64,000 bases of DNA from a virus. Taxonomy: Duplodnaviria; Heunggongvirae; Uroviricota; Caudoviricetes. The notes under the pieces are model-generated. The model worked only from the letters and a program-made list of their open reading frames with translations, made no database searches and was not told where the DNA came from. Below, in pieces: positions 5,389-46,496 of the stretch. The stretch is from the IMG/VR virus record IMGVR_UViG_2724679538_000004, positions 45,799 through 109,798 of that record. One strand, 5' to 3'. The stretch's first letter is position 1, and the number at the start of each line of letters is the position of its first letter. A program made the translations under genes and the position numbers.

Positions 5389-6531
5389 ATGTCATATTCA
5401 ACGTTCCGTTTGGGTGCTAATGATGCAACCAAAGAGCCTATGTTCCTCGGACAATCTGTCAACGTGGCACGTTACGATCAGCAAAAGTACCGTGATTTTG
5501 AAAAGTTGATTGAACGTCAATTGTCTTTCTTCTGGCGGCCAGAAGAAGTTGATATTTCAAGCGATCGCATCGACTTCAATACGAAGCTGCGGGACCACGA
5601 ACGTCACATTTTCCTGAGTAATCTCCGTTATCAAACGTTACTCGATTCAGTTCAGGGACGTAGCCCAAATGCAACGCTGCTGCCGCTTATCTCTATCCCT
5701 GAACTGGAAACGTGGATTGAAACGTGGTCTTTCTCTGAGACTATCCATAGCCGCAGCTACACCCACATTATTCGTGGCATGGTGGATGACCCTAGCATTG
5801 TTTTTGACGGTATTGTTACGGATGAAGAAATCATCAACCGAGCGATCAGTATCTCTGCTGAATATGACAGGCTTTATGGGATGACCTGCGATCGCCAGTC
5901 GTTAGGTGAGAAGGAATTTGAGCGTCTGTACGTAAATGAATATGGCTGGGAGCCATACCCTTTGCAACGTCAGCTTTTCCGCACGTTGGTGTCTATTAAT
6001 GCGCTTGAGGCGATCCGTTTCTACGTAAGTTTTGCATGTACGTTTGCCTTTGGCGAACGGAAGTTGCTTGAGGGTAACACCAAAATTATGCGCTTTATTG
6101 CCCGTGATGAAGCTCTGCATTGCGAGGGAACAGAACGTATGATCCGCTTCATGCGTACAGGTCGCGAAGGTTTATTGTGGAAAGAGATTGCTGCTGATGA
6201 AGAAAATGTCATTTACGACACCATGAAATCAGTCGCCGAACAAGAAATGAACTGGGCAGACTATCTCTTCAAAGATGGCTCAATGATTGGTTTAAACGCA
6301 GAGATTCTCAAAAGCTACGTAAAGTACCGCACCAATCTGGCTATGAATCGTCTTGGCCTTAAGGCGTTATTCCCAGAAGTTACCAGTGATCCGCTGGTCT
6401 GGATGAATAAGTGGCTATTGACCGACACACTGCAAATCGCACCACAAGAGGCAGAGCAAAGCACATATCTGGTAGGTCAGATCGATTCTACCGTAGACAA
6501 AGCCTCACTGAGTCAGTTCGCGGACCTGTAA
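5389..6531 (+). CDS. nrdB: ribonucleoside-diphosphate reductase beta subunit
   Basis: Strong resemblance to E. coli NrdB over the whole length; ATG at 5389 with AAGGA RBS preferred over the upstream TTG at 5353. Confidence 0.9.
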
Positions 6532-6609: not shown

Positions 6610-7485
6610 ATGAATTTTACCAAACTGAAAGACCACCTAAAGATTGCCACGGATCGTCTCGTTGGTTTCAAGGCTGAACCATATGAAATCAATGAAGGTC
6701 ACGTTATGGCGACGGAAGCTATTTACCAAATGGTCGATCAGTTTCATGAACTCTTTCAACACCCGCGTCGTGTGGTGCCAACACCGGAATTACTTCGTCT
6801 CCGTGCCAGATTGATTCATGAGGAAGCTGTAATAGAAGGCATCCCAGCCGCACAAAAAGGAGACATTGAGCAGCTGCTGGATGCAATGGCTGATTTTCTC
6901 TATGTAGGTGTAGGCACAATGGTCGCAGTTAAAGGTGGTATTTCTACAGGTATGACTTACTACACGCAGGAACAAAGCATTGATCGCTTTATTGAGACAT
7001 TCTTTGTGCCTCAGAATACTGTGTTCGATGACATGGCTATTCCATTCAAAGAAGCTCAGCAGGCGGCTGTGATGCTTGAAGAGTTGGCTGACAAACTTGA
7101 AAAGAAAACCATGAGAGATCCTGAACTGATTCAGGAGCTACGCCGTGTAATGAATAAAATTTACGTCGCGTGCATGATGACATATCGACTCGCTGATTTC
7201 TTGGGTGTCGATGTTGTTGAGCTGGTACGTGAGATTCATCGTTCCAACATGACTAAATTATGGCCTGCGGATATGGAAGAGCGCCAAAAGGCTGTAGAGA
7301 ACTGCAAATACGACAAACACGATCTAAGTTTTCGCCATGCGGACGGGACAGACATGATGATAGGCTTTCGTGTTTCAGATGGAAAAATACTCAAATCGCC
7401 AACATACAGTGACGTTGATCTTACTGCGTTTGTAGCGCAGGCGAAGTCTTCTGCAATATATGATGAAGTTAAAAAATTATTGTAG
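6610..7485 (+). CDS. all-alpha NTP pyrophosphohydrolase-like protein (MazG/HisE/dimeric-dUTPase superfamily), putative
   Basis: EExxE...D...D pattern (IHEEAVIEG...LLDAMADFLY) typical of the superfamily; sits in the nucleotide-metabolism cluster. Confidence 0.4.
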   Translation: MNFTKLKDHLKIATDRLVGFKAEPYEINEGHVMATEAIYQMVDQFHELFQHPRRVVPTPELLRLRARLIHEEAVIEGIPAAQKGDIEQLLDAMADFLYVGVGTMVAVKGGISTGMTYYTQEQSIDRFIETFFVPQNTVFDDMAIPFKEAQQAAVMLEELADKLEKKTMRDPELIQELRRVMNKIYVACMMTYRLADFLGVDVVELVREIHRSNMTKLWPADMEERQKAVENCKYDKHDLSFRHADGTDMMIGFRVSDGKILKSPTYSDVDLTAFVAQAKSSAIYDEVKKLL

Positions 7486-26762: not shown

Positions 26763-27506
26763 TCACTGCATGTTGCCGAATTTTTTGTTAAGGCTTTTTC
26801 GTATTGTCTCTATGGTTTTCTCCCTATCTGAATATAGTTCGCTAACTACATAGTCCATAATCTCAAAAGCACCTTCGATATCTTTGATCCGAACTTCATC
26901 AAACGTATGACTGCCTGCATTCCCCAAGAACTTTATCGCCAAAAGATTTTGAGCAAGTTTGCTGCCCTCTTCCGGGATTTTTTCGATACGATGGTGCAAT
27001 CGGATTGTCTTACCTTTATCATTTTGCGTAGGTATCCCCATAGAGGTAAGGATATTTTCTACAGCGATTCTGATTAGGTTTGCTGCGGCACCTTGCTGCA
27101 TTAAAAAAATGGAAAAAGCAGCTTTCAGGGGGCCACTTACTTCATCCGGGCAGTTCTCTGGAATTTGAAAAACATTCAAGGAAGGAACAAAGCAAAGAGG
27201 TTTGTACCATTGATAATATTCGTCTGCCATTTCCTCTGGTTGGTAATCTCTATCCCATCCTGCCTTTCCTACGCAGGCAACCGCTTCGCCACATTTTGCT
27301 CGTGAACATTTGGCCATACAGCTGAAATAGGACTCAGACATATCGTAATCAAACCAATCTTCATTTTGTGCTTTCCTGGTACCTAAAGACTCCTCTTCAA
27401 CAAAACTATCTTGCATGATTTCCAGAGTCTTTTGTCCGCAGACCGGACAAGGCCAGTCCACATGTTTATCGCTGTAAAATCGATGGGAAATTTTATGAAT
27501 AGCCAT
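26763..27506 (-). CDS. zinc-ribbon protein; C-terminal region resembles DUF4145-type module (tentative)
   Basis: N-terminal CPVCG ... C..C; C-terminal LAIKFLGNAGSHTFDE; opposite strand to all neighbours. Confidence 0.5.
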   Translation of the reverse strand: MAIHKISHRFYSDKHVDWPCPVCGQKTLEIMQDSFVEEESLGTRKAQNEDWFDYDMSESYFSCMAKCSRAKCGEAVACVGKAGWDRDYQPEEMADEYYQWYKPLCFVPSLNVFQIPENCPDEVSGPLKAAFSIFLMQQGAAANLIRIAVENILTSMGIPTQNDKGKTIRLHHRIEKIPEEGSKLAQNLLAIKFLGNAGSHTFDEVRIKDIEGAFEIMDYVVSELYSDREKTIETIRKSLNKKFGNMQ

Positions 27507-27651
27507 TTATTTCGCTCCATGCATATTGGCCGAAATGAGTTCAAACGATACCAATATGAATAATAGATGCGTTACTTTAAGACACTGTGGATTAAATACA
27601 AAGCATGGCTACCAACAGAAGGAACAAAAGATACTGGTTACAAATACCCGT

Positions 27652-27718
27652 AAATAAATTGTTTTCTACCTTTTCTTAATTGTGATAATAAACCACACAA
27701 GAAAACAAATTGTTTAGG
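27652..27718 (+). promoter_or_regulatory. sigma70-like promoter (TTGTTTTC, extended -10 TGTGATAAT) followed by operator CAAGAAAACAAATTGTTTAGG
   Basis: Read directly; same architecture at 21727-21785. Confidence 0.5.
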
Positions 27719-28402: not shown

Positions 28403-28972
28403 ATGGATGTAATGGAAACCCAGAACCAACAAACAAAACCTCTGAATAACATTTATGCGTGGATTCTAGCGTTCATGCCTTTCTTCTTTGCAGTATCGCC
28501 GGAAGAGTATACCAATTACGCTATTATAATTGGGGGTGTAACTACCATCGGTTTGTTAGTAGCTGACAGAATGGCTCTATCGGAGTCTGGCTGTGAACCA
28601 CCTTCAATTCTATGGGGGGTATTCCTCCTGCCTGTCTATCTCTGGAAGCGCGCGACTATTACAAAAGGCAGCAGAGTGCCATTTATCATAATCGTTGCGT
28701 CGCTGGCTTGGGTTATCTTCATCGGCATCCCACACAAGGACGAGGTTGCTCTTGAAGAAGCAGCCTGCCCTCTCGTGACAACTATTCTGAAAGAGAATAA
28801 CGGTTCGACTGCACCAAAATGTATGAAGGTGACAATAGAGGACAAGGTGACGGATAAGTTCTATAGAGCAACGGCTACACTAGACAATGGTAATGACATT
28901 AACATTACTCTGGAACTTACCGGCGACAGGAACTTCTACGTCCGTGTTCCAAATGTTTATCTGAACAACTAA
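28403..28972 (+). CDS. membrane protein (multiple hydrophobic segments)
   Basis: Several predicted transmembrane stretches. Confidence 0.45.
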   Translation: MDVMETQNQQTKPLNNIYAWILAFMPFFFAVSPEEYTNYAIIIGGVTTIGLLVADRMALSESGCEPPSILWGVFLLPVYLWKRATITKGSRVPFIIIVASLAWVIFIGIPHKDEVALEEAACPLVTTILKENNGSTAPKCMKVTIEDKVTDKFYRATATLDNGNDINITLELTGDRNFYVRVPNVYLNN

Positions 28973-29100
28973 CGGTTGCAACTTATTGATAATGGCGGTC
29001 ACAATTTGATTCTTTTCTATAAGAATCCGTTGATCGCCACTACTCCCCTTCCATACCTGCAACCACATCCTTAAATATCAATTAGTTATAGTTGTTTATA

Positions 29101-29124
29101 CCAATAAGAAAACAACTAAATAAC
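29101..29124 (+). promoter_or_regulatory. promoter/operator family motif (variant)
   Basis: CCAATAAGAAAACAACTAAATAAC; no convincing gene downstream. Confidence 0.3.
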
Positions 29125-29313
29125 AGATCAACGAAATGTCAATGCTTTCGCCCGATTTGGTCTATAAAATTGACGTTTTCACACATCACTTCTTATACCC
29201 GCAATCCTACGCAGCAGACAGCGCCACAGCGTCCAATTTTCACCACAGATGACCCAACAACTACCAATAAAAACACACGCTCAAAATCGCTCCCGTTGCG
29301 TTACACAACCATA

Positions 29314-29356
29314 TAAACAACTTGTTTTCAGGCATAACAAAACAACTAAATAACAC
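29314..29356 (+). promoter_or_regulatory. promoter/operator family motifs (TAAACAACTTGTTTTCAGG and CATAACAAAACAACTAAATAACAC)
   Basis: Immediately upstream of the A/C-rich noncoding tract. Confidence 0.35.
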
Positions 29357-29900
29357 ATATGCCATTCCCCAAAACAACCAACCTCTTTATGGCAGGCTAC
29401 CGAAAAGACCCACCTCTTCTTCCCAGGCTACCGGACAACCAACCTAACTTTCACAGGCAATTCGAAACCTCCATACGCGCGATACCCACGACACGCCATT
29501 CCCCAAATAGCGAAGAACCACCGAAACCCCAACGAAGCTTGTAACCGCAAGGATTTCCTCAATCCCAAAAGACACGAAACAGAACATTCGAGGGAAACGC
29601 CATTACCCAATACACGAATAACTACAAAAGCCTTTCACGCACTCCATACAAGCAACTCAAACACAATAACGAAAGGAATCGCCCACCTGCCATTACTCCA
29701 TACACGGAGAAGAACAATCACCAAAACGTCGAGAACAACCCAGAGAAGAACCACCGCAAAACGAACGAAACCATATAAACCGACAGAGAGAACTACACAC
29801 CCAATTCACCAACAGAAATAGTCGCCGTATAGAACGTTCAGGGAGGAGTGAGTATTAACGCCTATAGAGAGCTTGAGACAGATAAAACACGAAGAAAACA
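29357..29900 (+). other. A/C-rich, G-poor noncoding tract with dispersed GCCATT(A/C)C(C/T)C...ACACG repeats (candidate untranslated transcript)
   Basis: No credible ORF on either strand; composition skew visible by eye; bounded by promoter-like motifs upstream and a hairpin/T-run downstream. Confidence 0.35.
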
Positions 29901-29946
29901 CAACATGTATAACGGAGAAGCCAGGTATGTATAAGTGGGGAGTGGA

Positions 29947-29968
29947 GGAGGGGTGTCGCCTCCTTTTT
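29947..29968 (+). terminator. terminator-like hairpin plus T-run
   Basis: GGAGG-GGTGTCG-CCTCC then TTTTT. Confidence 0.45.
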
Positions 29969-30032
29969 CGTATTTATTCAACTCCTGATTTTATCCCCCC
30001 GTAAAACCCCTACGGTCAGCCTTCGGTCCATA

Positions 30033-30173
30033 CAGGGAAAAGGTTGCATCCCGCTACAGAAACGGCTGGGTTGCCTTCGGGGAACGGCTGGAGGTTTTCA
30101 GGGAAACGGTCGAGTTGCCTGTGTGGGTTTCGGGAAAAGGCTCGATGCCGGTTCAGGAACGGTGGCGTACCGG
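30033..30173. repeat. about six tandem imperfect ~22-bp repeats of (C)AGGGAAA(A/C)GG type (iteron-like)
   Basis: CAGGGAAAAGG, CGGGGAACGG, CAGGGAAACGG, CGGGAAAAGG, CAGGAACGG read in series. Confidence 0.55.
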
Positions 30174-30475
30174 TATAGCGAGAGGGAGAGTTGCGGCTAC
30201 CCACCTGTAATGTGCGGGAAGAAGGGAGACTCTCACGTATAGGCGAACCTACTTCCCGCTGGATTCCCTCTGAATGCCCAGCTACAGCGTAATTGTGCCA
30301 GACAGTCCGCGGGTCACAATCGATTTCAGTAGGTTTTCGGGGAGAGGATTATTCTGCCCACCAGCTCCCTGCGGCCAGTAAATCAGAATAATGTAAAAAG
30401 TGCCCACGGTACTGAACCTGAAAAGTCACTACTAAAACTGCATTTACCGGAATAAAACTCTTTTTCACCTATGTG

Positions 30476-30518
30476 TTATTGCGATAATAACACCAACGAG
30501 AAAACAAGTTGTTTACGG
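30476..30518 (+). promoter_or_regulatory. promoter (-10-like GCGATAAT) plus operator CGAGAAAACAAGTTGTTTACGG
   Basis: Read directly. Confidence 0.45.
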
Positions 30519-30525
30519 AGTGGTA

Positions 30526-30837
30526 ATGAATACCTCATTGGTTCTTGGTCTTGCAGAAGGTCAGGACAGAAAAGAAAAGCCAACTTTGATGGGACACCTC
30601 ACATTGTTGGATATCGTAGCGAACGGAACTTCTATTCGACTGTTTCGTGAAAAAGCTATTACCTTCGACAAAGTGAATTTAACGCGCTATGTGATGGTTG
30701 TTCGTCGCCAGCGAGGAAGAGGGTGGATGTCAGTTCAGAAAATGTGGCCAGAGGACCAGCTTGAACTGGCACTGATGGAAGTGAACCGCGTAGCCCAGCA
30801 AGAAATCCAACGAGCTTCTGTTCAGGCAGTGGCTTAA
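30526..30837 (+). CDS. hypothetical protein
   Basis: ATG 30526 with ACGGAG RBS. Confidence 0.45.
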   Translation: MNTSLVLGLAEGQDRKEKPTLMGHLTLLDIVANGTSIRLFREKAITFDKVNLTRYVMVVRRQRGRGWMSVQKMWPEDQLELALMEVNRVAQQEIQRASVQAVA

Positions 30838-30871
30838 GCATGTGCAAGCAGTAGTTAGTCGAGTGTACGAC

Positions 30872-30900
30872 AGCCCTGATTCCTTACAGGGCTTTTTTGT
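30872..30900 (+). terminator. intrinsic terminator
   Basis: AGCCCTGATTCCTTACAGGGCT plus TTTTTT. Confidence 0.6.
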
Positions 30901-30924
30901 ATTGTAAGTAACTACTTACAATAA
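30901..30924. promoter_or_regulatory. copy of recurrent palindrome (ATTGTAAGTAACTACTTACAATAA)
   Basis: Inverted repeat about 40 nt upstream of the next start. Confidence 0.35.
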
Positions 30925-30963
30925 TAGAATTACCTCGTTCGTTAACTTACATACAGGGAGAGT

Positions 30964-31362
30964 ATGATGAGCGTAAAACGCGAAAACCTGACAATCGATA
31001 TGTACTATGCCTCTGAAAAAGCAGAAGACGAAGCGGTTGCAAAAATTACCGTGATGATTCGTGACAATGAATCTGGTGCAGAGGTACAAACAAGCACTCT
31101 TGTACGCACAGGAACAGGCGAAGAGGCGACTTATGCCGTCGGCTATCAGAATATCAACGATGCCACGGACCCGCTGTTACTTAAACTGGAAAACCACTTC
31201 CGCAGTGTCGATAAGGTGCTTTTTGAGAAGCTGATGGAAGCCGTGGATGAGGTGTATACCTCAAACCTCAACAGCAATACTACCTGGATGGGACAGTATG
31301 GCCTGCGAATTACCACCGGCGCTCAAGTAGAAACCGTCATCCCCGAAAGCGTATTCGCTTAA
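30964..31362 (+). CDS. hypothetical protein
   Basis: 132-aa ORF with GGGAGAG RBS. Confidence 0.45.
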   Translation: MMSVKRENLTIDMYYASEKAEDEAVAKITVMIRDNESGAEVQTSTLVRTGTGEEATYAVGYQNINDATDPLLLKLENHFRSVDKVLFEKLMEAVDEVYTSNLNSNTTWMGQYGLRITTGAQVETVIPESVFA

Positions 31363-31372
31363 TCCTCTTTGA

Positions 31373-31399
31373 ATGGCGCGTAAACCGCGCCATTTTCTT
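31373..31399 (+). terminator. intrinsic terminator
   Basis: ATGGCGCGTAAACCGCGCCAT plus T-rich run. Confidence 0.55.
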
Positions 31400-31405
31400 A
31401 TGCCC

Positions 31406-31424
31406 GATAACAATTTGTTTTCTG
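31406..31424 (+). promoter_or_regulatory. promoter/operator family motif (GATAACAATTTGTTTTCTG)
   Basis: Read directly. Confidence 0.4.
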
Positions 31425-31443
31425 CCTTATCTGATTTGTGAAA

Positions 31444-31854
31444 ATGATTTCACTGAAGCAACTTAATAAGGAAACCATCATGGAACTTGATATCTATATC
31501 GAGACGCAGCCTAAAAACGATCTGAATAACGAGGAATCCAGAAGACAGGTTGCTTACTTCCGCAAGTTCAATGCGCTCGTTGGGTGGATGGAGCGCAACG
31601 TAGGTGAAGTCGAAAATTGTGAGCTTTTAGAATTAACGATGAATGACATTTGTTTTCTGAAAGCTCATTTGATGCACATAAACGAAAGTAATTGCGAAGA
31701 GTACTTACCTACACAGGAAGGGTTTTTCTTCGGCAGTCAGGAGTACGATGAAGGTTACTGGCATGACGTGGATAAGCTGAAAAAACTGGTGGAAGACCTG
31801 ATTAGGAACCACGACTTCCACAATAACAGACTGACATTTTGCGCCTGGTGGTAA
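31444..31854 (+). CDS. hypothetical protein (start uncertain; an ATG at 31480 has the better RBS)
   Basis: ORF in the expected cassette position. Confidence 0.4.
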   Translation: MISLKQLNKETIMELDIYIETQPKNDLNNEESRRQVAYFRKFNALVGWMERNVGEVENCELLELTMNDICFLKAHLMHINESNCEEYLPTQEGFFFGSQEYDEGYWHDVDKLKKLVEDLIRNHDFHNNRLTFCAWW

Positions 31855-32136
31855 ATATGGGGGATTTTAGAAAGCGTCTTAAGGAAAGAACTGAGCAGGC
31901 CAGGAGGCAAAACGCGTTTTCTGTTATCCGGTACGCGAAACAATTCAGTCGGAACAACAAGTCAGTTGAGGAAAAGATCCTCAGCGTAATAGGACGATAA
32001 TTATTGAGGCTACCAGCATGGATAGCCTCACTGACTTTTCTTATAACCGAAGGTTAGTTTTGAAACCTGGCTAATGACTTCCAGTACCTGTCTTGATAAT
32101 TCAGCCTGCATTAACTTCTTTTCTGCCTTATCTACA

Positions 32137-32175
32137 CTGCGATAATTACACCAACAAGAAAACAACATGTTTACG
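32137..32175 (+). promoter_or_regulatory. promoter (-10-like TGCGATAAT) plus operator CAAGAAAACAACATGTTTACGC
   Basis: Read directly. Confidence 0.45.
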
Positions 32176-32185
32176 CAGTGAGGAT

Positions 32186-32473
32186 ATGCACATGACTGAT
32201 TTCACCATTACTACCAAAGCACAAAATGTATTCCTTGAATCATGGCTGGACTTGCCGGAAACAGAACAGCAAGAAATGGATCATGTGGAATATGACGAGC
32301 AGGTAAGCACGCGATTCTTCCACTTTGAGGGCTGCGTTTACGATATTGCCGACTTCATGCGAGATGACCGCTTCCCTGAATGGCACGCAAGCTATCCACT
32401 TAACGCCTTCGCCATGCTGATGATCCGTGTGGATGACTCAGGGGATACCATCGATGTCGGTTTGCTCCACTAA
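32186..32473 (+). CDS. hypothetical protein
   Basis: ATG 32186 with GAGGAT RBS. Confidence 0.4.
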   Translation: MHMTDFTITTKAQNVFLESWLDLPETEQQEMDHVEYDEQVSTRFFHFEGCVYDIADFMRDDRFPEWHASYPLNAFAMLMIRVDDSGDTIDVGLLH

Positions 32474-32503
32474 ATAATAAGGGACCACCAGCATTGGTGG
32501 CTC

Positions 32504-32776
32504 TTATATCATTTTTGCGAGCTTATTCATTTTGGTGAAGTCAATTGGCAATTCGGCCAAAGGTATCAAATAGTCTTTTTGTGCCCAGAAGTTTGGAGAT
32601 CTGCCCACTACATACGAAAGCCGATAAGCGTCTTCATCGGTAATCGGCTTTCTTTGTTCTAGTATAGCTTCAGCATAGTCGATACTAACCGCCATGCTGC
32701 GAGCCAATAATTCAACCCCAATACCGTAATCGTCATAAATGGCATCAAGAAATTTTTTCACATCAAGTTGGGACAT
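32504..32776 (-). CDS. XRE-type helix-turn-helix DNA-binding protein (putative regulator)
   Basis: LARSMAVSIDYAEAILEQRKP resembles an HTH motif; lone minus-strand gene among plus-strand cassettes. Confidence 0.45.
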   Translation of the reverse strand: MSQLDVKKFLDAIYDDYGIGVELLARSMAVSIDYAEAILEQRKPITDEDAYRLSYVVGRSPNFWAQKDYLIPLAELPIDFTKMNKLAKMI

Positions 32777-32861
32777 ATGATTATCTCCTCAAATAAGCCA
32801 AGTTTTTATTATATAACGATATTTTTCGATTGTGGGTAATATGATTACACCCGCAGGCTAA

Positions 32862-32945
32862 AAACACCAACCTCTTACCTCCAGGCTACCGATTAACCCA
32901 CCTGTTCCCGTCCGGCTACCGCAACTTTCCACTTTGACGCCTTAT
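32862..32945. repeat. paralog of the 29375-29465 element (contains two CAGGCTACCG-type direct repeats)
   Basis: Aligns by eye with 29375-29465. Confidence 0.5.
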
Positions 32946-32953
32946 TCGTACAA

Positions 32954-32992
32954 CGATAATTAACACCAACAAGAAAACAATTTGTTATTTAC
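32954..32992 (+). promoter_or_regulatory. promoter (-10-like CGATAAT) plus operator CAAGAAAACAATTTGTTATTTACG
   Basis: Read directly. Confidence 0.45.
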
Positions 32993-33007
32993 GATAAGGA
33001 ATTAATC

Positions 33008-33490
33008 ATGAATTTTATCGTTACTGTAAACGCACCCGCACATGGCAATATCGCTGTAACGTTCTCTGACATTGAAAAACGAGTACTTGGTGCATGGCGC
33101 GACAATGAGACGGTAGAACTGTCAGCACAAGAAAAATGCATTATTGCACGCGACATCATTGGTAATCGTCGTTACTCGCGGGTATTTGAGAAAGCGTATG
33201 TGGTAAATTCTGGATTCGGAACGTTCGTCTTTCCGGTGCGCTCCGGGCGATTCTGCCAGTCCAAGCTGATTGAGTTCGCTACGCAGATTTCTGTCTGGAT
33301 TAAAACTCAATCGTCGTTCAAATTTTCCGACGATGAAGCAGTATCGCAGGGGATGCGGATCGCCAACAATGCGATAAAATGCAAAAACATTACGTATGCC
33401 GCTGGCGTTGACACATGGAAACTGTTTTGCGCTAACTTTATGCTGAATGTATACGCAAGCAACCGCATCCACATCCTTGATGGCGTGTAA
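33008..33490 (+). CDS. hypothetical protein
   Basis: 160-aa ORF with AAGGAA RBS. Confidence 0.45.
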   Translation: MNFIVTVNAPAHGNIAVTFSDIEKRVLGAWRDNETVELSAQEKCIIARDIIGNRRYSRVFEKAYVVNSGFGTFVFPVRSGRFCQSKLIEFATQISVWIKTQSSFKFSDDEAVSQGMRIANNAIKCKNITYAAGVDTWKLFCANFMLNVYASNRIHILDGV

Positions 33491-33539
33491 CTGAGAAGAG
33501 GGCCAGAAACGGCCCTTTCTCTATAGCCACCAGCTGCCG

Positions 33540-33657
33540 CAGGGAAATTTTCAGAAACGGCGAGGAACGCATTCATGAACCGACGGGAAACGGCCAAGAT
33601 TTTTTCGGGAAACGGCTGCATTCGCCTTTATGTAGAAAAACATCGGGAAGCTGGTGG
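33540..33657. repeat. second array of GGGAAACGG-type repeats, flanked by CCACCAGCT / AGCTGGTGG inverted repeat
   Basis: CAGGGAAA, CGACGGGAAACGGCC, CGGGAAACGGCTG, CGGGAAGCTGG read in series. Confidence 0.5.
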
Positions 33658-34082
33658 AATCCAACCAGCGGTTGTCGGACAGGTGAGCGCGGAAAATAAT
33701 GATGACTTTCGTCGCCTGAGACATACAGATTTCTTTCATAGCGTAATCACATACGTGATTAAGTAGTGTGATTATGTGAAAAATCACGCGCACATAATAC
33801 GCGAGCGGATAAAGAACAACACAAAATGCCGATCCGCGCCGACAAATAAACGCGGATCACATAGCAAGACTAATAACCAATGATTAGCCATACATTATAA
33901 CGCAATATAACGCGATTTAAGCGCGTTAATGTGTTAAGTAATGGGTATGTACTGGTAAGGATGTAAAAGCGCGTCTATGGTGTTATTTTGGCGCTTATTT
34001 TTATGTTGTTGGAGTGAGTCAAAGACAATAAAAAAACGCGCCATTGATGGCGCGTTATTGTGGAAGTATTGGAAACGAAAAA

Positions 34083-34101
34083 AGCGCCCATAGTGGGCGC
34101 T
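34083..34101 (-). terminator. terminator for minus-strand gene
   Basis: Hairpin AGCGCCCATAGTGGGCGCT preceded on the plus strand by an A-run; an identical hairpin lies at 34354-34370. Confidence 0.5.
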
Positions 34102-34105
34102 CGAT

Positions 34106-39361: not shown

Positions 39362-39385
39362 AATAAGTAAGTGCTTATCTAATGG
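39362..39385. promoter_or_regulatory. copy of recurrent palindrome in a divergent intergenic region (AATAAGTAAGTGCTTATCTAATGG)
   Basis: Lies between the minus-strand helicase and the plus-strand ParB-like gene. Confidence 0.35.
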
Positions 39386-40080
39386 ATTGTATCAGCAAAA
39401 TGGATGTGAAAATCACGATTTTGCAGGTTGAAGTGGCCAACCTGCGTCCAAATTCATGGAACACCAACTCAGTAGGTGCTCAAAACTTCGAAAAACTGAA
39501 AGGATCTATCGAAAAATTGGGCTTTTTTAAGCCTATTTTGGCGCGTGAGCTTAATGACGGCATTTATGAAATCCTCGGCGGCGAACATCGCTGGCGTGCG
39601 GCCATTGAACAAGGAATTTCAACGGTTCCAGTGCTATCGGTTGGCAAAATTAGCGACTTAGTAGCGAAACAGATGTCACTCGTGGACAACGAACGCTACG
39701 GCGAAGACGATCAGATTGCTTTGCAGCGCTTTATTGAAGAAATTCAGTCTGAACTCGATTACCAGTTGTCAGAAATTGCCCCTTATGACGATGAAATTTC
39801 TATGGTTCTTGCAAAAGAGGCTGCAATTGACCTCGAAGCTCTTGAGGCACTGTCGCGTGGGGAGGATGAGCCTGTAGATACTGACAAGCGTGAAAAAATC
39901 GAACGCGCCGGAACAGATCATCAGACCATGCGTTTCAAAGTTACCTTTGATGCGTCAGATCGTGTTGCCGACACAATAAAAAACATCATCAAAGAACAAG
40001 CAATTAACACTGGCAATGAAATGGAGAACGCTGGTGAGGCTTTGGTGTGGCTGGTCGACTACTACAAGGAGCGTATGTAA
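39382..40080 (+). CDS. ParB-like nuclease-domain protein 1
   Basis: ILGGEHRWRAA matches the ParB/Srx box (GxxRxxA). Confidence 0.65.
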   Translation: MDCISKMDVKITILQVEVANLRPNSWNTNSVGAQNFEKLKGSIEKLGFFKPILARELNDGIYEILGGEHRWRAAIEQGISTVPVLSVGKISDLVAKQMSLVDNERYGEDDQIALQRFIEEIQSELDYQLSEIAPYDDEISMVLAKEAAIDLEALEALSRGEDEPVDTDKREKIERAGTDHQTMRFKVTFDASDRVADTIKNIIKEQAINTGNEMENAGEALVWLVDYYKERM

Positions 40081-40748
40081 TGACCAAAAAGTTTGAAATC
40101 GTATATCGCAATCCGGCAGATCTCATTCCTTACGAGATGAATGCCAAAAAGCATGATGAACAGCAGATCCGAGATCTGGCCGCAGCCATTAAAAAGCGCG
40201 GATTTGACCAGCCAATTACGGTCGATAAGAACGACGTAATTATTACTGGCCACGGCCGCCGTGAGGCTGCAATTTTTGCTGGGCTTGAGCGCGTACCAGT
40301 TATTGTTCGCGATGATCTGAGTGATGACGAGGTTCGTGCGAAGCGCCTTGAAGATAACCGACTCGCCAGCATTGATTACGATGCAATTAAGCTACAGAAA
40401 GAGCTTGAGTCGCTTGTTCTGGACGATATCGAGGTTTTCGGCTTTGAAGAGCGAGAGTTGAATGTTCTCGTTGGCAGCATGACTGAGGAAATGGATACCG
40501 ACTCGTTAGTTATCGATCTGGGCGAAGAAACCAAACGACAGAAGGATGAGCACACCGAAATCAGTCGTGAAGTTGCAGCGGAAGAAGTGCGCGTTGTCGA
40601 CGTATTGGGCTTTAAAACGCTCCCTGCTGGCTCTGCCATTGTTGTTGGTGATTTGCTTGCCCACATGGAAGAAATGACTGGAGAAAGCGGGGTAGACGCA
40701 TTTGTGGCATATGCGGAGAAGATCTCTTCCGGGGAGATGACTGCATGA
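40080..40748 (+). CDS. ParB-like nuclease-domain protein 2
   Basis: ITGHGRREAAIFAG ParB box; TAATG coupling with AAGGAG RBS. Confidence 0.65.
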   Translation: MTKKFEIVYRNPADLIPYEMNAKKHDEQQIRDLAAAIKKRGFDQPITVDKNDVIITGHGRREAAIFAGLERVPVIVRDDLSDDEVRAKRLEDNRLASIDYDAIKLQKELESLVLDDIEVFGFEERELNVLVGSMTEEMDTDSLVIDLGEETKRQKDEHTEISREVAAEEVRVVDVLGFKTLPAGSAIVVGDLLAHMEEMTGESGVDAFVAYAEKISSGEMTA

Positions 40749-41383
40749 GCAAATACATCATCAACGTATCGTTTCAGACTCGCGTAAATAAAACCACGCG
40801 CACGTTGGAAATCGCCGAGTCGTTCGGGCTTGGCCTTGACGAAAAAGAGTGGACGCTTTACGACAATCTGGAGCTGGAAGTTAAGCAGGGCGATGTAGTG
40901 TACATCACCGGCCAATCCGGTTCAGGCAAATCAGTTGTGCTGCGCGAACTGCAACGCCAGATGAAAGATGAAGGGCTTTCTGTGGCCTCCATCGATGATT
41001 TTACATTCGACAATGATGTTAACGTCATCGACCAGCTAGGGAAAACAACCAGCGAAGCGCTGGGGCTGCTGTCTATGGCCGGATTGAATGACGCCTATCT
41101 CTTTGTGCGCAAACCTTCCGAAATGTCTGACGGTCAGAAATATCGTCTCAAGATCGCCAAGCTAATTGAGTCAGGCGCAAAAGTGTGGGCTGCGGACGAG
41201 TTCGGTGCTGTTCTTGATCGTGTAACGGCGCAGGTCGTGGCGTCCAATCTACAGCGTGCAGCCCGTAAAGTTGGGGCGACGGTGATGGTTGCGACAACTC
41301 ATGAGGACCTTAAAAACGCTCTTCGTCCTGATATGCAGATCACTAAGCACTATAAAGAGCGAGTGAAGGTGGAATATGCCTGA
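40745..41383 (+). CDS. small ABC-type ATPase
   Basis: Walker A GQSGSGKS, signature-like SDGQKYR, Walker B AADEFG, H-loop TTHE; ATGA coupling. Confidence 0.6.
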   Translation: MSKYIINVSFQTRVNKTTRTLEIAESFGLGLDEKEWTLYDNLELEVKQGDVVYITGQSGSGKSVVLRELQRQMKDEGLSVASIDDFTFDNDVNVIDQLGKTTSEALGLLSMAGLNDAYLFVRKPSEMSDGQKYRLKIAKLIESGAKVWAADEFGAVLDRVTAQVVASNLQRAARKVGATVMVATTHEDLKNALRPDMQITKHYKERVKVEYA

Positions 41384-41630
41384 TTTGAAGATTGTAGAGC
41401 TGAAGCCATCGAAAGAGGATGACAATAACAATGTTGAGGTCATCCGCTTGCTGGAAGAAGCACTCCAGTACGCCAGAGAAGGCAAATCCCAGAGTCTGGC
41501 GCTGCTGATGATCAATAACGACGGCAGTGTCATGGATTGCTGGCATAACGGTGGGCGTCCTTACGTCATGGTTGGGGCGATGGAATCGCTTCGCCTGGAC
41601 TTCATCAATGCCAATATAGAGCGCAGGTGA
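41376..41630 (+). CDS. hypothetical small protein
   Basis: 84-aa ORF overlapping the ATPase gene. Confidence 0.4.
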   Translation: MPDLKIVELKPSKEDDNNNVEVIRLLEEALQYAREGKSQSLALLMINNDGSVMDCWHNGGRPYVMVGAMESLRLDFINANIERR

Positions 41631-41635
41631 TCGAC

Positions 41636-42526
41636 ATGACAGACATCATCATCAAACGCTACCGCCTTGAAGAGTTTCCGCGTCATCTGGACTTTCTGGA
41701 GCGAATGACTGTCACAAAGGGGACTGTAGAGGACTGGCACGCTCTTAAGTCGCTTCACTACAAAACTGACGGCAAACCTTTCGCACCAACTTATTATCGC
41801 TGCGAACTGGATGGCCGTCTGGTGGGCGTCGTGGTAATGGCTTACCCGAAACTTTTGCTGGCACCTCGCCATCGCATGTTTCCTAAGTTGAAACCAACCA
41901 CTAACACCACCGTGGCGAACCAGTACTGGGGGCGATACGTGAATAACAACTTTGCGGTGATCAGTCGCTCAGTTGTGGATACTCAGTACCGTGGCGTTGG
42001 CGTCTCTTATCGAATGATTAACCTGGTTAGCAGGATGCATGATCGGCCAATAATTGAGATCCAGTCCTCAATGAGCAAATACAATCCCTTCGCCATGAAA
42101 GCAGGGTTCAAGTTCATCCGCCCTGAGCGACCGAAGAGCTATGAAAGTGCACTGCGTGTGTTCCAGCGCCATTTCCGCTCCGACCCGGGAGATAACGAGG
42201 CGATCGTCAAAGAGTTGTTCGCAATGAGCGAGTCCCGTCGTCGCCGTGCACTGCGTGATCTGGTGGCGGACTACCACAAGAACAGTTCCCTGGCAAAAGC
42301 TGGGCGGAATCGTGGCACGACGATTCAGGACATTGCCGACAGTCTCGTGGACGAGGCCAGCATAGTGAAGCTGCTCAAGGACATTCACAACCTGAGCTTT
42401 ACGTCTCCGTTGTATGGTGTGTACCGAAACCCTGACTTTGGCCGTCGACTGCCTGATTCGCTGCCACTGCTGGCATTCGACAAACAACCTTTGGATAAAC
42501 CGTTAGAAATTGCTTTACCGGCATAA
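41636..42526 (+). CDS. GNAT-like acyltransferase-fold protein (putative)
   Basis: VVDTQYRGVGVSYRMINLV resembles GNAT motif A (Q/R-x-x-G-x-G/A). Confidence 0.45.
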   Translation: MTDIIIKRYRLEEFPRHLDFLERMTVTKGTVEDWHALKSLHYKTDGKPFAPTYYRCELDGRLVGVVVMAYPKLLLAPRHRMFPKLKPTTNTTVANQYWGRYVNNNFAVISRSVVDTQYRGVGVSYRMINLVSRMHDRPIIEIQSSMSKYNPFAMKAGFKFIRPERPKSYESALRVFQRHFRSDPGDNEAIVKELFAMSESRRRRALRDLVADYHKNSSLAKAGRNRGTTIQDIADSLVDEASIVKLLKDIHNLSFTSPLYGVYRNPDFGRRLPDSLPLLAFDKQPLDKPLEIALPA

Positions 42527-42535
42527 GGATTTGCC

Positions 42536-42802
42536 ATGACGTTAACCGATAAACAAAAGGACATTATCAAAACGCTCAATCTCGGTTATGAACGAGGACA
42601 TCTACTTGATCTGGACGAATTGCTTGAAGTTTTGCCCTACAAAACATCTAAGCAAAGTATCCAGTTCTCTATTCGCGCACTGATCAAAAAAGGGCTGGTG
42701 GAGAAAGGAAACACTCGCCAGCGCAGTGATACTCGATATCACCGTCGTACTCTTGGGTTAACTACTTTAGGTCGAGCACGAGCCAAATTACTGGTGATGT
42801 AA
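42536..42802 (+). CDS. small basic protein, possible winged-helix DNA-binding
   Basis: 88-aa basic ORF. Confidence 0.35.
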   Translation: MTLTDKQKDIIKTLNLGYERGHLLDLDELLEVLPYKTSKQSIQFSIRALIKKGLVEKGNTRQRSDTRYHRRTLGLTTLGRARAKLLVM

Positions 42803-42804
42803 TA

Positions 42805-42903
42805 GGTCTGGGGTGCTTATTTAAAGCCTGCGTCTGTATATATAAATAATAAATAACTTATTAAATATATACGGAAGCAGGTTCAATAAGACACGCCCAG
42901 ACC
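42805..42903. repeat. nested-hairpin element paralogous to 13237-13335
   Basis: Outer GGTCTGGGG/CCCAGACC, inner CCTGCGTCTGTATATATA/TATATACGGAAGCAGG. Confidence 0.5.
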
Positions 42904-42917
42904 TAATTTGACACCCC

Positions 42918-42964
42918 AGAAAACAAGTTGGTTAGTGAATGCAATAAACAAGTTGTTTTAGAGC
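42918..42964 (+). promoter_or_regulatory. two copies of the promoter/operator family motif
   Basis: CAGAAAACAAGTTGGTTAG and AATAAACAAGTTGTTTTAGAG. Confidence 0.4.
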
Positions 42965-42998
42965 GCATGGACGCGCTCTGTGTGTTTTAGAGGGATCT

Positions 42999-43631
42999 AT
43001 GACTGTCGAAAAAGACGAGGGAAAAACTCGCCTGACACCAGCGGAGTGGGCCGAAGCAGAAGCCAAATGGACGTCAGGCGAATATACACTCTCAAAGCTG
43101 GAGGAAGAGTACGGCATTCGCCGTGAAACACTCTCCAGACATTTCAAAAAGCGAGGATTGGAGAAAGGCGCAGACTCTGTTGGGAAGATGGTTCGCGAGT
43201 CTCTCAAATCTGACGCAGAGCTTCGTGCTAAAGCCCGTGCAGAAAAGATAGAAGAACGTCGTACACGTTATGACGGCTGGGCATATGCCTTGGGGCAGAT
43301 GGTGATGGTCGAAGTCACTACTGCTAAACGTGAGGGAAAACCTTTAGGGGGGATTGAGGATTCTCTTAAGAGCTTACAGAGAGCAAGTAATACCCTTGCA
43401 AAATGCTTTGAAATTTCGTCCAAAGCGTTGGGCATGGATCATGCGGAAAATGACGAGGAAGAAATTCCTAACCTGGTATTTGGCGAACTTACGCCTTCTC
43501 AGGTGGCGAAATTACGTCAGGAAGACGATGAGCCTGAAATCATCGATGACGAATTGCTTGAGGCACTAGAGGAAGAAGCTCTTAGCGAACTGGACGCCAG
43601 TGAGGAGGAGAGCGAAGGGGGAGATAAGTAA
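42999..43631 (+). CDS. terminase small subunit (putative)
   Basis: Immediately upstream of and coupled to the large terminase; acidic C-terminus. Confidence 0.5.
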   Translation: MTVEKDEGKTRLTPAEWAEAEAKWTSGEYTLSKLEEEYGIRRETLSRHFKKRGLEKGADSVGKMVRESLKSDAELRAKARAEKIEERRTRYDGWAYALGQMVMVEVTTAKREGKPLGGIEDSLKSLQRASNTLAKCFEISSKALGMDHAENDEEEIPNLVFGELTPSQVAKLRQEDDEPEIIDDELLEALEEEALSELDASEEESEGGDK

Positions 43632-44921: not shown

Positions 44922-46496
44922 ATGGAATTGGATGACAAACAAATTAAAGATTTAGTGGCAAGACGCCACCCTGAATACGAAAAGAAAAAGACACATTGGG
45001 ACTTCCTCGCCAGCACTTACGCTGGTGGGCGTGGTTGGTTCGCTGACAACATCTTTCGTTATTTCAAAGAAGGCGATCAGGAGTTTAAGGAACGTCTTGA
45101 GCGTGCTTACCGCTTCAATCACACCCGTGAAGTAGTAAACCTCATTAATAAATACCTGTTTAAAGAAGATATCCATCGAAACACAGAGGAAGCGCCTGAG
45201 CAGATCCGTAACTTCTGGAAAAGAGCGACACGCCAGAATGCATCTATCGACTCATTTATGGCTGCTATCGATTTGCAATCGTCAATCTATGGCCGTATTT
45301 GGGTTGTTGTAGATAGCACAATGAATGGTGATGTGGAGTCAGTCGCTGATGAGAAGAGGAAGAATGCACGTGCCTATGCCTACTGGATTTCCCCTCAACA
45401 AATGCTGGATGTGGCATGGGATGATGACGGCAATATGTTATGGGCGTTAATTGTGGAAGTTGCTCGTGATGATGCAGATCCATTTACTTCAACCGGTCAG
45501 GAATACCAACGTTATCGTCTGTGGACACAAAACGAGTGGTATCTGTTCCGTGAAGAAGTTAAGAAGAGCGCTGGCGGAGCCGGTCGCCGTCAGGCAAAAG
45601 TTATTTTAGAGGATAGCGGTGAACATAATCTCGGCGTAGTTCCCGTGTTTCCTGTTGATTGTATTGGAGAAAGCGAATCACCGTATTTCAGTCCATCGTT
45701 AATCGATGACATCGCATATCTTGATCGTGCTGTAGCCAACTATTTGTCTAACCTTGATGCCATTATTCAGGATCAAACTTTCAGTCAGTTGGCTATCCCC
45801 GTGCAGTCGATGATGCCTGGTGATGAAAGCCATAGCAAGGTGCTGGAAATGGGCACAAAACGAGTTTTCACCTACGATTCTGAAGGTGGAAACCAGCCGT
45901 TTTATCTTTCTCCAGATCCAAAACAAGCTCAGATGATCATCACTACGATTAAGACGGTGATTAATGAAATCTACCATTCAGTTGGTGTTGCTGGCGAACG
46001 AACGAAGCAGGATAACGCACAGGGAATCGATAACTCTTCTGGTGCCGCTAAGATGTATGACTTCCAGCGAGTTAACAGTCTGCTGGTCACAAAAGCAGAG
46101 CGTCTTGAAAGGGCAGAGCGACAAATTATGCAACTTGTCGCTAAATGGATGGGAGTCGAGCTGGATGAAGACCATTCTCTAATTGCTTACCCTGAGAGTT
46201 TTGATATTCGCGGTCTTACTGACGAATTTGCTGTTGCTGAGAAGCTGTCAATGCTTCAAGCGCCTGATTCTGTACGTCGTCGTCAGATGGAAATGCTCAT
46301 CGAGAAGATTTTCCCGAATATCACTGAGGCGATGAAAAAGGAATTTGATAAAGATCTCTTGAATTTTCCGCCAAAAAATGATCTAAATACCCTTGAAAAT
46401 AAGTCAGTACTTACTTATCATCGAGATACAGCTCAAGAAACCGAGCAAGATCAACCCCGAGGGAGTGGGGACTCATCTACTCAAGAAACCGAGTGA
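44922..46496 (+). CDS. portal protein (putative)
   Basis: 524 aa; position between terminase and scaffold. Confidence 0.6.
   Translation: MELDDKQIKDLVARRHPEYEKKKTHWDFLASTYAGGRGWFADNIFRYFKEGDQEFKERLERAYRFNHTREVVNLINKYLFKEDIHRNTEEAPEQIRNFWKRATRQNASIDSFMAAIDLQSSIYGRIWVVVDSTMNGDVESVADEKRKNARAYAYWISPQQMLDVAWDDDGNMLWALIVEVARDDADPFTSTGQEYQRYRLWTQNEWYLFREEVKKSAGGAGRRQAKVILEDSGEHNLGVVPVFPVDCIGESESPYFSPSLIDDIAYLDRAVANYLSNLDAIIQDQTFSQLAIPVQSMMPGDESHSKVLEMGTKRVFTYDSEGGNQPFYLSPDPKQAQMIITTIKTVINEIYHSVGVAGERTKQDNAQGIDNSSGAAKMYDFQRVNSLLVTKAERLERAERQIMQLVAKWMGVELDEDHSLIAYPESFDIRGLTDEFAVAEKLSMLQAPDSVRRRQMEMLIEKIFPNITEAMKKEFDKDLLNFPPKNDLNTLENKSVLTYHRDTAQETEQDQPRGSGDSSTQETE

Follow-up and report, generated by a model that had tools for sequence, protein, structure and literature searches.

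Judged by its nucleotide similarity, the 64,000-nucleotide window analyzed here (positions 45,799 to 109,798 of the IMG/VR record IMGVR_UViG_2724679538_000004, Caudoviricetes) is a phage-plasmid of the SSU5/pHCM2/pLF82 type. Positions 29300-30600 of the window are 87-93% identical to the Escherichia phages Cyrano (pLF82), CMS-2020a, and PhiR41_1 and distantly similar to Salmonella phage SSU5. The same region is matched by 835 plasmids in PLSDB, from Klebsiella, Escherichia, Enterobacter, Salmonella, Citrobacter, and Cronobacter; nearly all of these plasmids are non-mobilizable, and most of those listed are ∼105-115 kb in size. The focus here is on two short arrays of a G-rich motif in this element, array 1 (30033-30173) and array 2 (33540-33625), both on the + strand and separated by an operon of small genes (30520-33490, + strand).

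Array 1 consists of six units that share the core GGRAAMGG. The pattern G[AG]AA[AC]GG[CT] starts at 30037, 30059, 30081, 30103, 30134, and 30156, always on the + strand, with a unit spacing of 22,22,22,31,22. Array 2 contains units at 33554, 33587, and 33609 (spacing 33, 22) and a degenerate copy, CAGGGAAATTTT, at 33540; a further + strand copy, GAAACGGC, is found at 33506 in the loop of a hairpin 3' of the upstream gene, and three or four units make up the cluster within 33506-33609. The core doublet GGGAAACGGCC-N-TTTTCGGGAAACGGC is common to the two arrays, and T-tracts lie between the two best-conserved units in both of them. A sequence-only reading of this DNA had proposed about six tandem repeats of ∼22 bp and a second, shorter array bracketed by an inverted repeat. 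The shorter array is confirmed by its three units, and so is the inverted repeat (CCACCAGCT / AGCTGGTGG at 33527-33535 and 33649-33657). The six same-strand copies of array 1 are likewise far above chance, but they are not true tandem repeats: Tandem Repeats Finder reported neither array 1 nor array 2, because only ∼9 of every 22 unit positions are conserved. The arrays are phased copies of a motif.

The arrays are real and non-random. The pattern G[AG]AA[AC]GG[CT] matches 24 times on the + strand of the window and 9 times on the - strand, and 10 of the 24 + strand matches fall inside arrays 1 and 2. The biggest same-strand cluster within 130 bp held two matches in 300 Markov simulations of the window, compared with six in array 1; when the local G-rich composition was simulated 5000 times, clusters averaged 0.10 and never exceeded 3. 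The number of GGRAAMGG occurrences is ordinary (11 observed, 6.8 expected), so that clustering and register, and not abundance, are the unusual signal. In pCPF6 (NZ_CP075739.1), a close relative of 116 kb that was used for replicon comparison, the extended motif GGGAAACGG is confined to the arrays with no other occurrence, and the motif therefore marks a local cis-element rather than a dispersed operator. A literature search for the motif as a string returned nothing relevant.

The arrays are also conserved. The comparison set comprised 16 annotated relatives, together with 80 IMG/VR loci collected via the neighboring FljA-like gene. Motif, orientation, and register are preserved in 13 annotated relatives, though the flanks are just ∼67-72% identical. 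The six units of array 1 and their 22,22,22,31,22 register are the same in the elements of E. coli, E. fergusonii, Salmonella (SSU5, pHCM2), Citrobacter, and Enterobacter, while those of Klebsiella and Cronobacter have three to five units at 22-nt steps. The array 2 spacing of 33/34,22 is found almost everywhere among the relatives. Both arrays are present in a distant Klebsiella michiganensis element whose homologue of the neighboring 160-aa protein is just 33% identical, and Yersinia pestis pMT1 has kept array 2 and lost both array 1 and the A/C-rich tract that precedes it. Among the IMG/VR loci, 74 of 80 contain the arrays, and the remaining six are short or end too early. An alignment of 35 distinct six-unit arrays is free of gaps over 210 nt, with conservation peaking periodically on the units. 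Array 1 of PhiR41_1 lacks exactly one 22-bp unit, indicating that copy number changes by whole units. The sequence-only reading had looked to conservation in related genomes as a test, and the same motif and register do recur across six genera.

A doublet with its tail, GAAACGG-YMRGGRAAWTTTTC-GGGAAACGG-(8-12 nt)-CGGTATAG, is common to both arrays in all lineages. A scan of genome_contigs with a degenerate three-unit pattern gave unrelated hits alone, from many phyla, and a scan of viral_contigs with a doublet pattern that had an overlong gap recovered just divergent SSU5-like lineages, on contigs of ∼64-111 kb.

The arrays are non-coding. Coding potential over array 1 was considered and rejected: the frame is not conserved, an indel of one 22-bp unit shifts it, and the fragments in the window reach just 43-44 aa. 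The open reading frames that cross array 1 in Cyrano (CYRAN_104, 6638-7042), PhiR41_1 (6664-6933), and SSU5 (SSU5_109, 6070-6267) are probably spurious, and no gene is annotated over array 1 in the RefSeq relatives.

Array 1 sits in a block of 1.2-1.5 kb that is gene-free, according to RefSeq, in all relatives; the order of its parts was derived from an alignment of the block and a repeat search. A conserved promoter-like element, TTGACG-N17/18-TATACC, lies near 29168-29200 and was not called by the consensus scan. Between this element and the A/C-rich tract there are AAGAAAACAA and AAACAAnTTGTTT boxes. The tract itself (29330-29820, + strand) is G-poor and contains direct repeats, namely 31-nt units at 29369/29400/29430 and GCCATTACCCAATACACGGAGAAGAAC-type units at 29495/29599/29689; over 29001-30000 the GC skew is -0.31 and the AT skew +0.29. 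It is ∼70% identical to the tract of SSU5. The strand-specific composition of the tract points to a non-coding, unstructured RNA, which might be a platform that binds Rho, Hfq, or small RNAs. A 14-nt complementarity (93%) between the tract and the 31-nt spacer was treated as chance because it is not kept in SSU5. Array 1 had been placed directly downstream of the tract; in fact, the tract ends near 29820, and ∼210 bases and a hairpin (29942-29971, + strand) intervene. This hairpin, identified in the terminator scan, has a purine-rich 5' arm and a pyrimidine-rich 3' arm with G.U pairs, and is terminator-like in the window and weaker in SSU5-type relatives. Its G.U pairs would function only in + strand RNA.

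Further conserved features adjoin array 1 on the + strand. Just 5' of it, the block at 29972-30032 (ATTCAA..TTTT..CCCCCGTAA..CGGTCAGCCTTCGGTCC) contains invariant alignment columns. The tail of the array (30166-30190) reads CCGGTATAGCGAGAGGGAG, and a similar tail follows array 2 in relatives. A hairpin at 30214-30259 (GCGGGAAGAAGG..CCTACTTCCCGC), whose GCGGG..CCCGC stem is kept in relatives, precedes a variable stretch in which SSU5 and pHCM2 harbor small extra genes. Both ends of the gene-free block carry a 16-nt box, TAAACAACTTGTTTTC / GAAAACAAGTTGTTTA, at 29314-29329 and 30500-30515, with the core palindrome AAACAAnTTGTTT. This box recurs upstream of the type Ib parA gene in pCPF6 (L014 41462-41480), which suggests a common regulator, perhaps the small ParB-like partner, that would tie the gene-free block to the partition operon.

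The operon between the arrays encodes proteins of 105, 132, 138, 126, and 160 aa, which match PHROGs of unknown function and no Pfam family. Its control region (30473-30515, + strand) consists of the palindrome GTGTTATTGCGATAATAACAC (30473-30493) followed by a AAACAAGTTGTTT box, after which come the ribosome-binding site and the ATG start codon at 30526. The palindrome overlaps an extended -10 element (TGCGATAAT), is conserved in all lineages, and is likely a repressor operator. Because the promoter and operator of the operon lie at 30473-30515, array 1 would be located ∼300 bp upstream of the promoter and outside the short leader of the operon. The hairpin 3' of the 160-aa gene (33494-33522, + strand) has the form GGGCC-AGAAAC-GGCCC followed by TTTCTCT, with a GAAACGG copy in the loop; it was read directly from the sequence and was not called by the terminator scan. 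Equivalent hairpins in relatives also present GGAAAC(G) in the loop. Array 2 follows in the gap ahead of several - strand terminators of a convergent operon. The promoter scan found no promoter in front of array 1 or array 2, and both arrays are placed between transcription units.

The inverted repeat around array 2 has the Chi octamer as its core. The left arm, CCACCAGCT (33527-33535), holds a bottom-strand octamer directed towards RecBCD coming from the left, and the right arm, AGCTGGTGG (33649-33657), holds a top-strand octamer directed towards RecBCD coming from the right. The pair thus faces outward, so that RecBCD would encounter an active Chi immediately ahead of the array whichever side it came from. 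It is conserved in most relatives and lost in pMT1. The window contains 16 Chi octamers in 64 kb (33527 -, 33650 +, 30358 -, and 13 more), which are dense around 30-34 kb, also in relatives. Beyond array 2, positions 33700-34105 contain the palindromes AATCACATACGTGATT and GTGTGATTATGTGAAAAATCAC and three or four - strand terminator-like hairpins in series. This segment, for which Rfam returned sub-threshold hits alone (suhB/mmgR-like, E 0.29), could be a small - strand RNA or the control region of the convergent operon. At some distance to the left, a homologue of a DUF4145 gene occupies 26763-27506 (- strand). In pMT1 of Y. pestis 91001, the small RNA sR083 (105828-105915, +) adjoins such a gene, and a small RNA may also be made near 27550-27700 of the window.

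The sequence-only reading had likened the arrays to the iterons of a replication origin and had regarded the composition switch next to array 1 as origin-like in itself. In pCPF6, a homologue of P1 RepA is encoded at positions 94-927 (46% identity; it is missing from the PLSDB gene table), and a tblastn search with P1 RepA gave no match in the window. Five iterons lie 5' of pCPF6 repA together with a DnaA box and a GATC cluster, and at least twelve more iterons lie 3' of it. Their consensus is TATGCTGTCAGCGGT; a search with the iteron pattern matched pCPF6 14 times (12 times 3' and twice 5' of repA) but the window not once. This replicon (L014 1-1700 and L016 9900-10265) has a P1 oriR/incA-like layout and falls outside the part that matches the window, so that the plasmid replicon is a complete P1-like unit located elsewhere. 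Its oriR has all three of a DnaA box, a GATC cluster, and an AT-rich unwinding element. At the arrays, in contrast, none of these was found. There is no DnaA box within 28900-30600, where GATC occurs at two sites only, ∼900 bp upstream of array 1 and not clustered. The AT content adjoining array 1 is 38-62%, with no stretch above 62%. Scans for DnaA sites, IHF sites, and AT content detected nothing beside the arrays, and no Rep domain or rep-like gene is present among their neighbors. The supposed switch reduces to the local A/C-rich tract. The cumulative GC skew that the sequence-only reading had proposed as a check, computed over the full 116 kb of pCPF6, falls near-monotonically in step with gene orientation, since most genes share one direction, and it does not change course where the arrays lie. 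The absence of array 1 from pMT1, which is nonetheless a stable plasmid, suggests that array 1 is not needed for plasmid maintenance. By this comparison, the arrays belong to the conserved phage backbone and not to the plasmid replicon.

The arrays do not form a conserved RNA fold. RNAalifold produced a weak consensus for 13 sequences (-16 kcal/mol over 368 columns, with a covariation term of +0.23), and the minimum free energy z-scores of single-sequence folds against shuffles were -0.05, +0.25, and -0.73. Rfam gave no relevant match at E <= 1 in 27-36 kb or at gathering score in the whole window, and no tRNAs were found. A structured RNA is not supported by the weak fold, the z-scores near zero, and the lack of an Rfam match. 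A column-pair covariation scan on the 35 distinct arrays was uninformative, because the arrays fall into two clades and any clade-specific columns appear to covary.

The best explanation, at a probability of roughly 0.42, is that the arrays are phased double-stranded-DNA sites for a conserved phage-backbone protein and act as a paired cis-element in a phage function. This estimate is based on the usual workings of such arrays, the iteron-like register, the intergenic and promoter-less placement, and the lack of an RNA-structure signal; from these we infer a protein reader on DNA, cooperation between the arrays, and a role for them. One sequence-specific backbone protein would read the core GGRAAMGG, most strongly at the doublet GAAACGG-N-TTTTCGGGAAACGG. 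Several protomers would sit side by side, on six sites two or three helical turns apart in array 1 and on three to four sites in array 2, at a distance of 3.4 kb. Alike in orientation and similar in their tails, the arrays would form a cis-element in two parts, comparable to the paired ori/crr of P4 or oriR/incA of P1. It would serve the phage side, either in the control or initiation of lytic replication or in the looping or silencing of the operon that the arrays bracket, and would play no role in plasmid replication or partition. Two-part origins are known from two phages. The ori and crr sites of P4 carry the octamer TGTTCACC, which is bound by the alpha protein, and oriL and oriR of SPP1 form a two-part phage origin. 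In both, as in the arrays, repeats of ∼8 nt form two clusters that share one orientation and are separated by a few kb, and the phage brings its own helicase and primase. Unlike these origins, the arrays lack an unwinding element and a motif-linked initiator; in the relative, the genes for helicase, primase, and polymerase are tens of kb away. In the LF82 study, the virome coverage of Cyrano was equal to the plasmid background.

Several observations weigh against phased DNA sites. No recognizable DNA-binding domain is present in the proteins encoded between the arrays, and the neighboring 160-aa protein has no fold match. Against a lytic origin in particular, the arrays show neither an AT-rich unwinding segment nor a DnaA box, and the skew does not change there. 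The phasing itself is imperfect in the deepest lineages, where off-phase unit spacings of 24, 28, and 36-37 occur. The lack of indels in array 1 between the window and SSU5 (0 gap openings in 141 array columns at 72% identity, compared with 12 in the 812 columns to the left) is weakly significant, as ∼2 gap openings are expected in 141 columns at the flank rate. Other observations point towards RNA. The orientation of the units matches the flanking transcription, as does the copy in the hairpin loop. The ∼500-nt A/C-rich tract and the G.U-paired hairpin argue that this strand may be read as RNA to within 60 nt of array 1. In addition, an Sm-fold RNA-binding protein is encoded 2 kb from array 2.

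Because the units are co-oriented, the A/C-rich tract precedes a G.U-paired hairpin, and a copy lies in a loop, a linear RNA motif stays a live reading. The main rival to DNA sites, itself judged unlikely, is that the arrays act as RNA and provide single-stranded sites for a putative reader, the tandem-Sm FljA-like protein of the element. The gene in question (PF03614; 35630-36154, - strand) encodes a protein with 39% identity to chromosomal FljA that is composed of two Sm/Hfq-like domains and has no helix-turn-helix, which makes it the candidate reader if the arrays work at the RNA level. Rightward transcripts would pass the weak hairpins, so that array 1 would be carried by the A/C-rich RNA and array 2 by the 3' end of the operon, and the arrays would either sequester the FljA-like protein or govern how stable those RNAs are or how they terminate. 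In Salmonella, FljA is reported to keep fliC mRNA from being translated (PMC2652032). The E. coli fliC leader holds GCCGACGGGUGGAAACCC and AGGAUAACGA, which are reminiscent of the units ACCGACGGGAAACGGCC of array 2 and CAGGAACGG of array 1, although the likeness is short (CCGACGGG..GGAAAC and AGGAUAACG); the leader motifs are of the GGAAAC and GGAUAAC types. Direct binding of fliC mRNA by FljA was reportedly described by Yamamoto and Kutsukake in 2006. All units are oriented with the flanking transcription, including the one in the loop at the operon end, and the strand-specific composition of the tract together with the G.U-paired hairpin would be a sign of selection at the RNA level. The FljA-like gene and the arrays always co-occur, pMT1 included, but this is plain synteny inside one family and hence no independent test. 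GGAAAC is expected by chance in ∼7% of 70-nt leaders (own calculation), and the known target of FljA is a single mRNA leader as opposed to a repeat array; the resemblance to the fliC leader would serve as a lead and not as a test. The scan found a promoter for neither array, and a hairpin precedes array 2. The Y. pestis small RNA catalogue lists two small RNAs on pMT1, neither at array 2, and the FljA-like gene does not appear among the Cyrano genes for which the LF82 study reports expression higher than the local background in the lysogen. A broader version of the RNA reading, more doubtful still, takes the gene-free block of 1.2-1.5 kb as one long non-coding RNA, composed of the promoter-like element, the A/C repeats, the G.U hairpin, and the GGRAAMGG array, that would function as a modular sponge or scaffold. 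Sites for the tandem-Sm FljA-like protein of the element would be provided by the G-rich array and by the copy that follows the operon, and the A/C repeats would be bound by a further RNA-binding factor, for instance Hfq or Rho. If true, the block would be a mobile-element counterpart of CsrB/CrcZ that could reprogram post-transcriptional control in the host, for example of flagellin. The sequence-only reading had also raised the titration of CsrA through GGA motifs, in the manner of CsrB/RsmZ. Like those RNAs, the arrays have many GGA units on one strand, 10-30 nt apart. Five of the six units of array 1 contain GGA after CA or CG, and CsrB holds TTTCAGGGAAAGGC, close to unit 4 of array 1 (TTTTCAGGGAAACGG). 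The 22-nt spacing, moreover, is within the range that a CsrA dimer can bridge. However, GGA is missing from unit 2 of array 1 and from the first unit of array 2, both conserved as CAGAAACGG, which makes CsrA sites unlikely. After GGA, conservation falls on AAMGG and not on the UG that typifies CsrB, a pattern that CsrA leaves unexplained. Hairpin loops do not display the motifs, the folding energy is not in excess, no promoter or terminator of their own defines an evident discrete transcription unit, and Rfam gave no CsrB/CsrC/Rsm match at E <= 1. A sponge for host CsrA is thus very improbable.

Two further alternatives, both of them DNA-based, relate the arrays to plasmid maintenance. The oriR/incC and incA sites of P1 likewise consist of same-strand direct repeats in two clusters that flank gene(s) in a phage-plasmid. 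As RepA-bound iterons, the arrays would be the origin or incA-like copy-control sites of the plasmid-prophage; their repeats follow each other at two and three helical turns, exactly like those of P1 oriR and incA, and a gene cluster lies between the two arrays, much as repA lies between iterons. In the annotation of the P1 record, the distance is 21-22 bp for oriR iterons (22,21,21,21) and 30-31 and 40-41 bp for incA iterons, similar to the 22 and 31-34 bp of the arrays, and the 3' half of the P1 iteron (..GGAGGGAAA(A/C)CG) resembles the unit CAGGGAAACGG. The iteron-like spacing noted by the sequence-only reading is real, but the unit sequence is unlike TATGCTGTCAGCGGT, and 8-10 positions per 22 bp are conserved, compared with 19 in P1 iterons. 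Unlike P1, the SSU5-type family has its own P1-like RepA with iterons of another sequence elsewhere, and unlike P1 oriR, the arrays have no adjoining rep gene, DnaA box, GATC cluster, or AT-rich region. Moreover, pMT1 replicates without array 1, and the arrays persist unchanged over different replicon types (plasmids typed IncFIB, rep_cluster_488, 763, and 711). The arrays are distinct from the RepA iterons of the family, and a role as RepA sites is scarcely credible. A centromere had been suggested on the grounds that the phage encodes two ParB-like proteins, and two genes with ParB_N domains are indeed present at 39382-40080 and 40047-40748. They form part of a cluster (39382-43631) that encodes the two ParB_N proteins, an ABC-type ATPase, and proteins of 299, 88, and 210 aa directly 5' of the large terminase gene, with a divergent DEAD-box helicase gene beside it, and that is conserved in pMT1 and distant lineages. 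The arrays would then be putative centromere-like or loading sites for the ParB_N proteins, like the dispersed sites of N15 SopB or KorB, at which the organization of DNA is coupled to the silencing of genes. Both proteins are encoded in the conserved backbone, 6 kb downstream of array 2; the sites are few, conserved, repeated, and clustered, as expected of loading sites or a centromere; and P1-type ParB also reads non-palindromic boxes, according to the annotation of the P1 record. The array motif, itself non-palindromic, differs from the annotated P1 parS boxes. The ParB_N genes adjoin ABC-type ATPase, terminase, and portal genes and so could equally serve another role, and no link connects their products to the motif. 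To our knowledge, the motif is unlike other parS sites as well. The true partition operon of pCPF6 (type Ib parA and a 117-aa partner) lies ∼45 kb from the arrays, with a different box, AAACAAnTTGTTT, upstream of parA. Together, these points make a centromere of the partition system unlikely and sites for the ParB_N proteins quite improbable.

Phage-plasmids of the SSU5/pHCM2/pMT1/pLF82 type are very common in clinical Enterobacteriaceae, and their biology past gene lists is almost unstudied; iterons go unmentioned in the SSU5 papers that a full-text search retrieved. Two repeat systems can now be told apart in these phage-plasmids: the plasmid origin has its P1-like RepA iterons, and the phage backbone has an equally conserved array. 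If the arrays are ordinary operator or iteron sites, their description would be a useful annotation and no surprise. The adjacent 'transcriptional regulator' has been flagged as an FljA-family tandem Sm/Hfq-like RNA binder, which would alter the annotation in hundreds of plasmids. The 55-nt doublet module, present twice, would provide a small and precise target for the study of a lytic origin or a new regulatory circuit.

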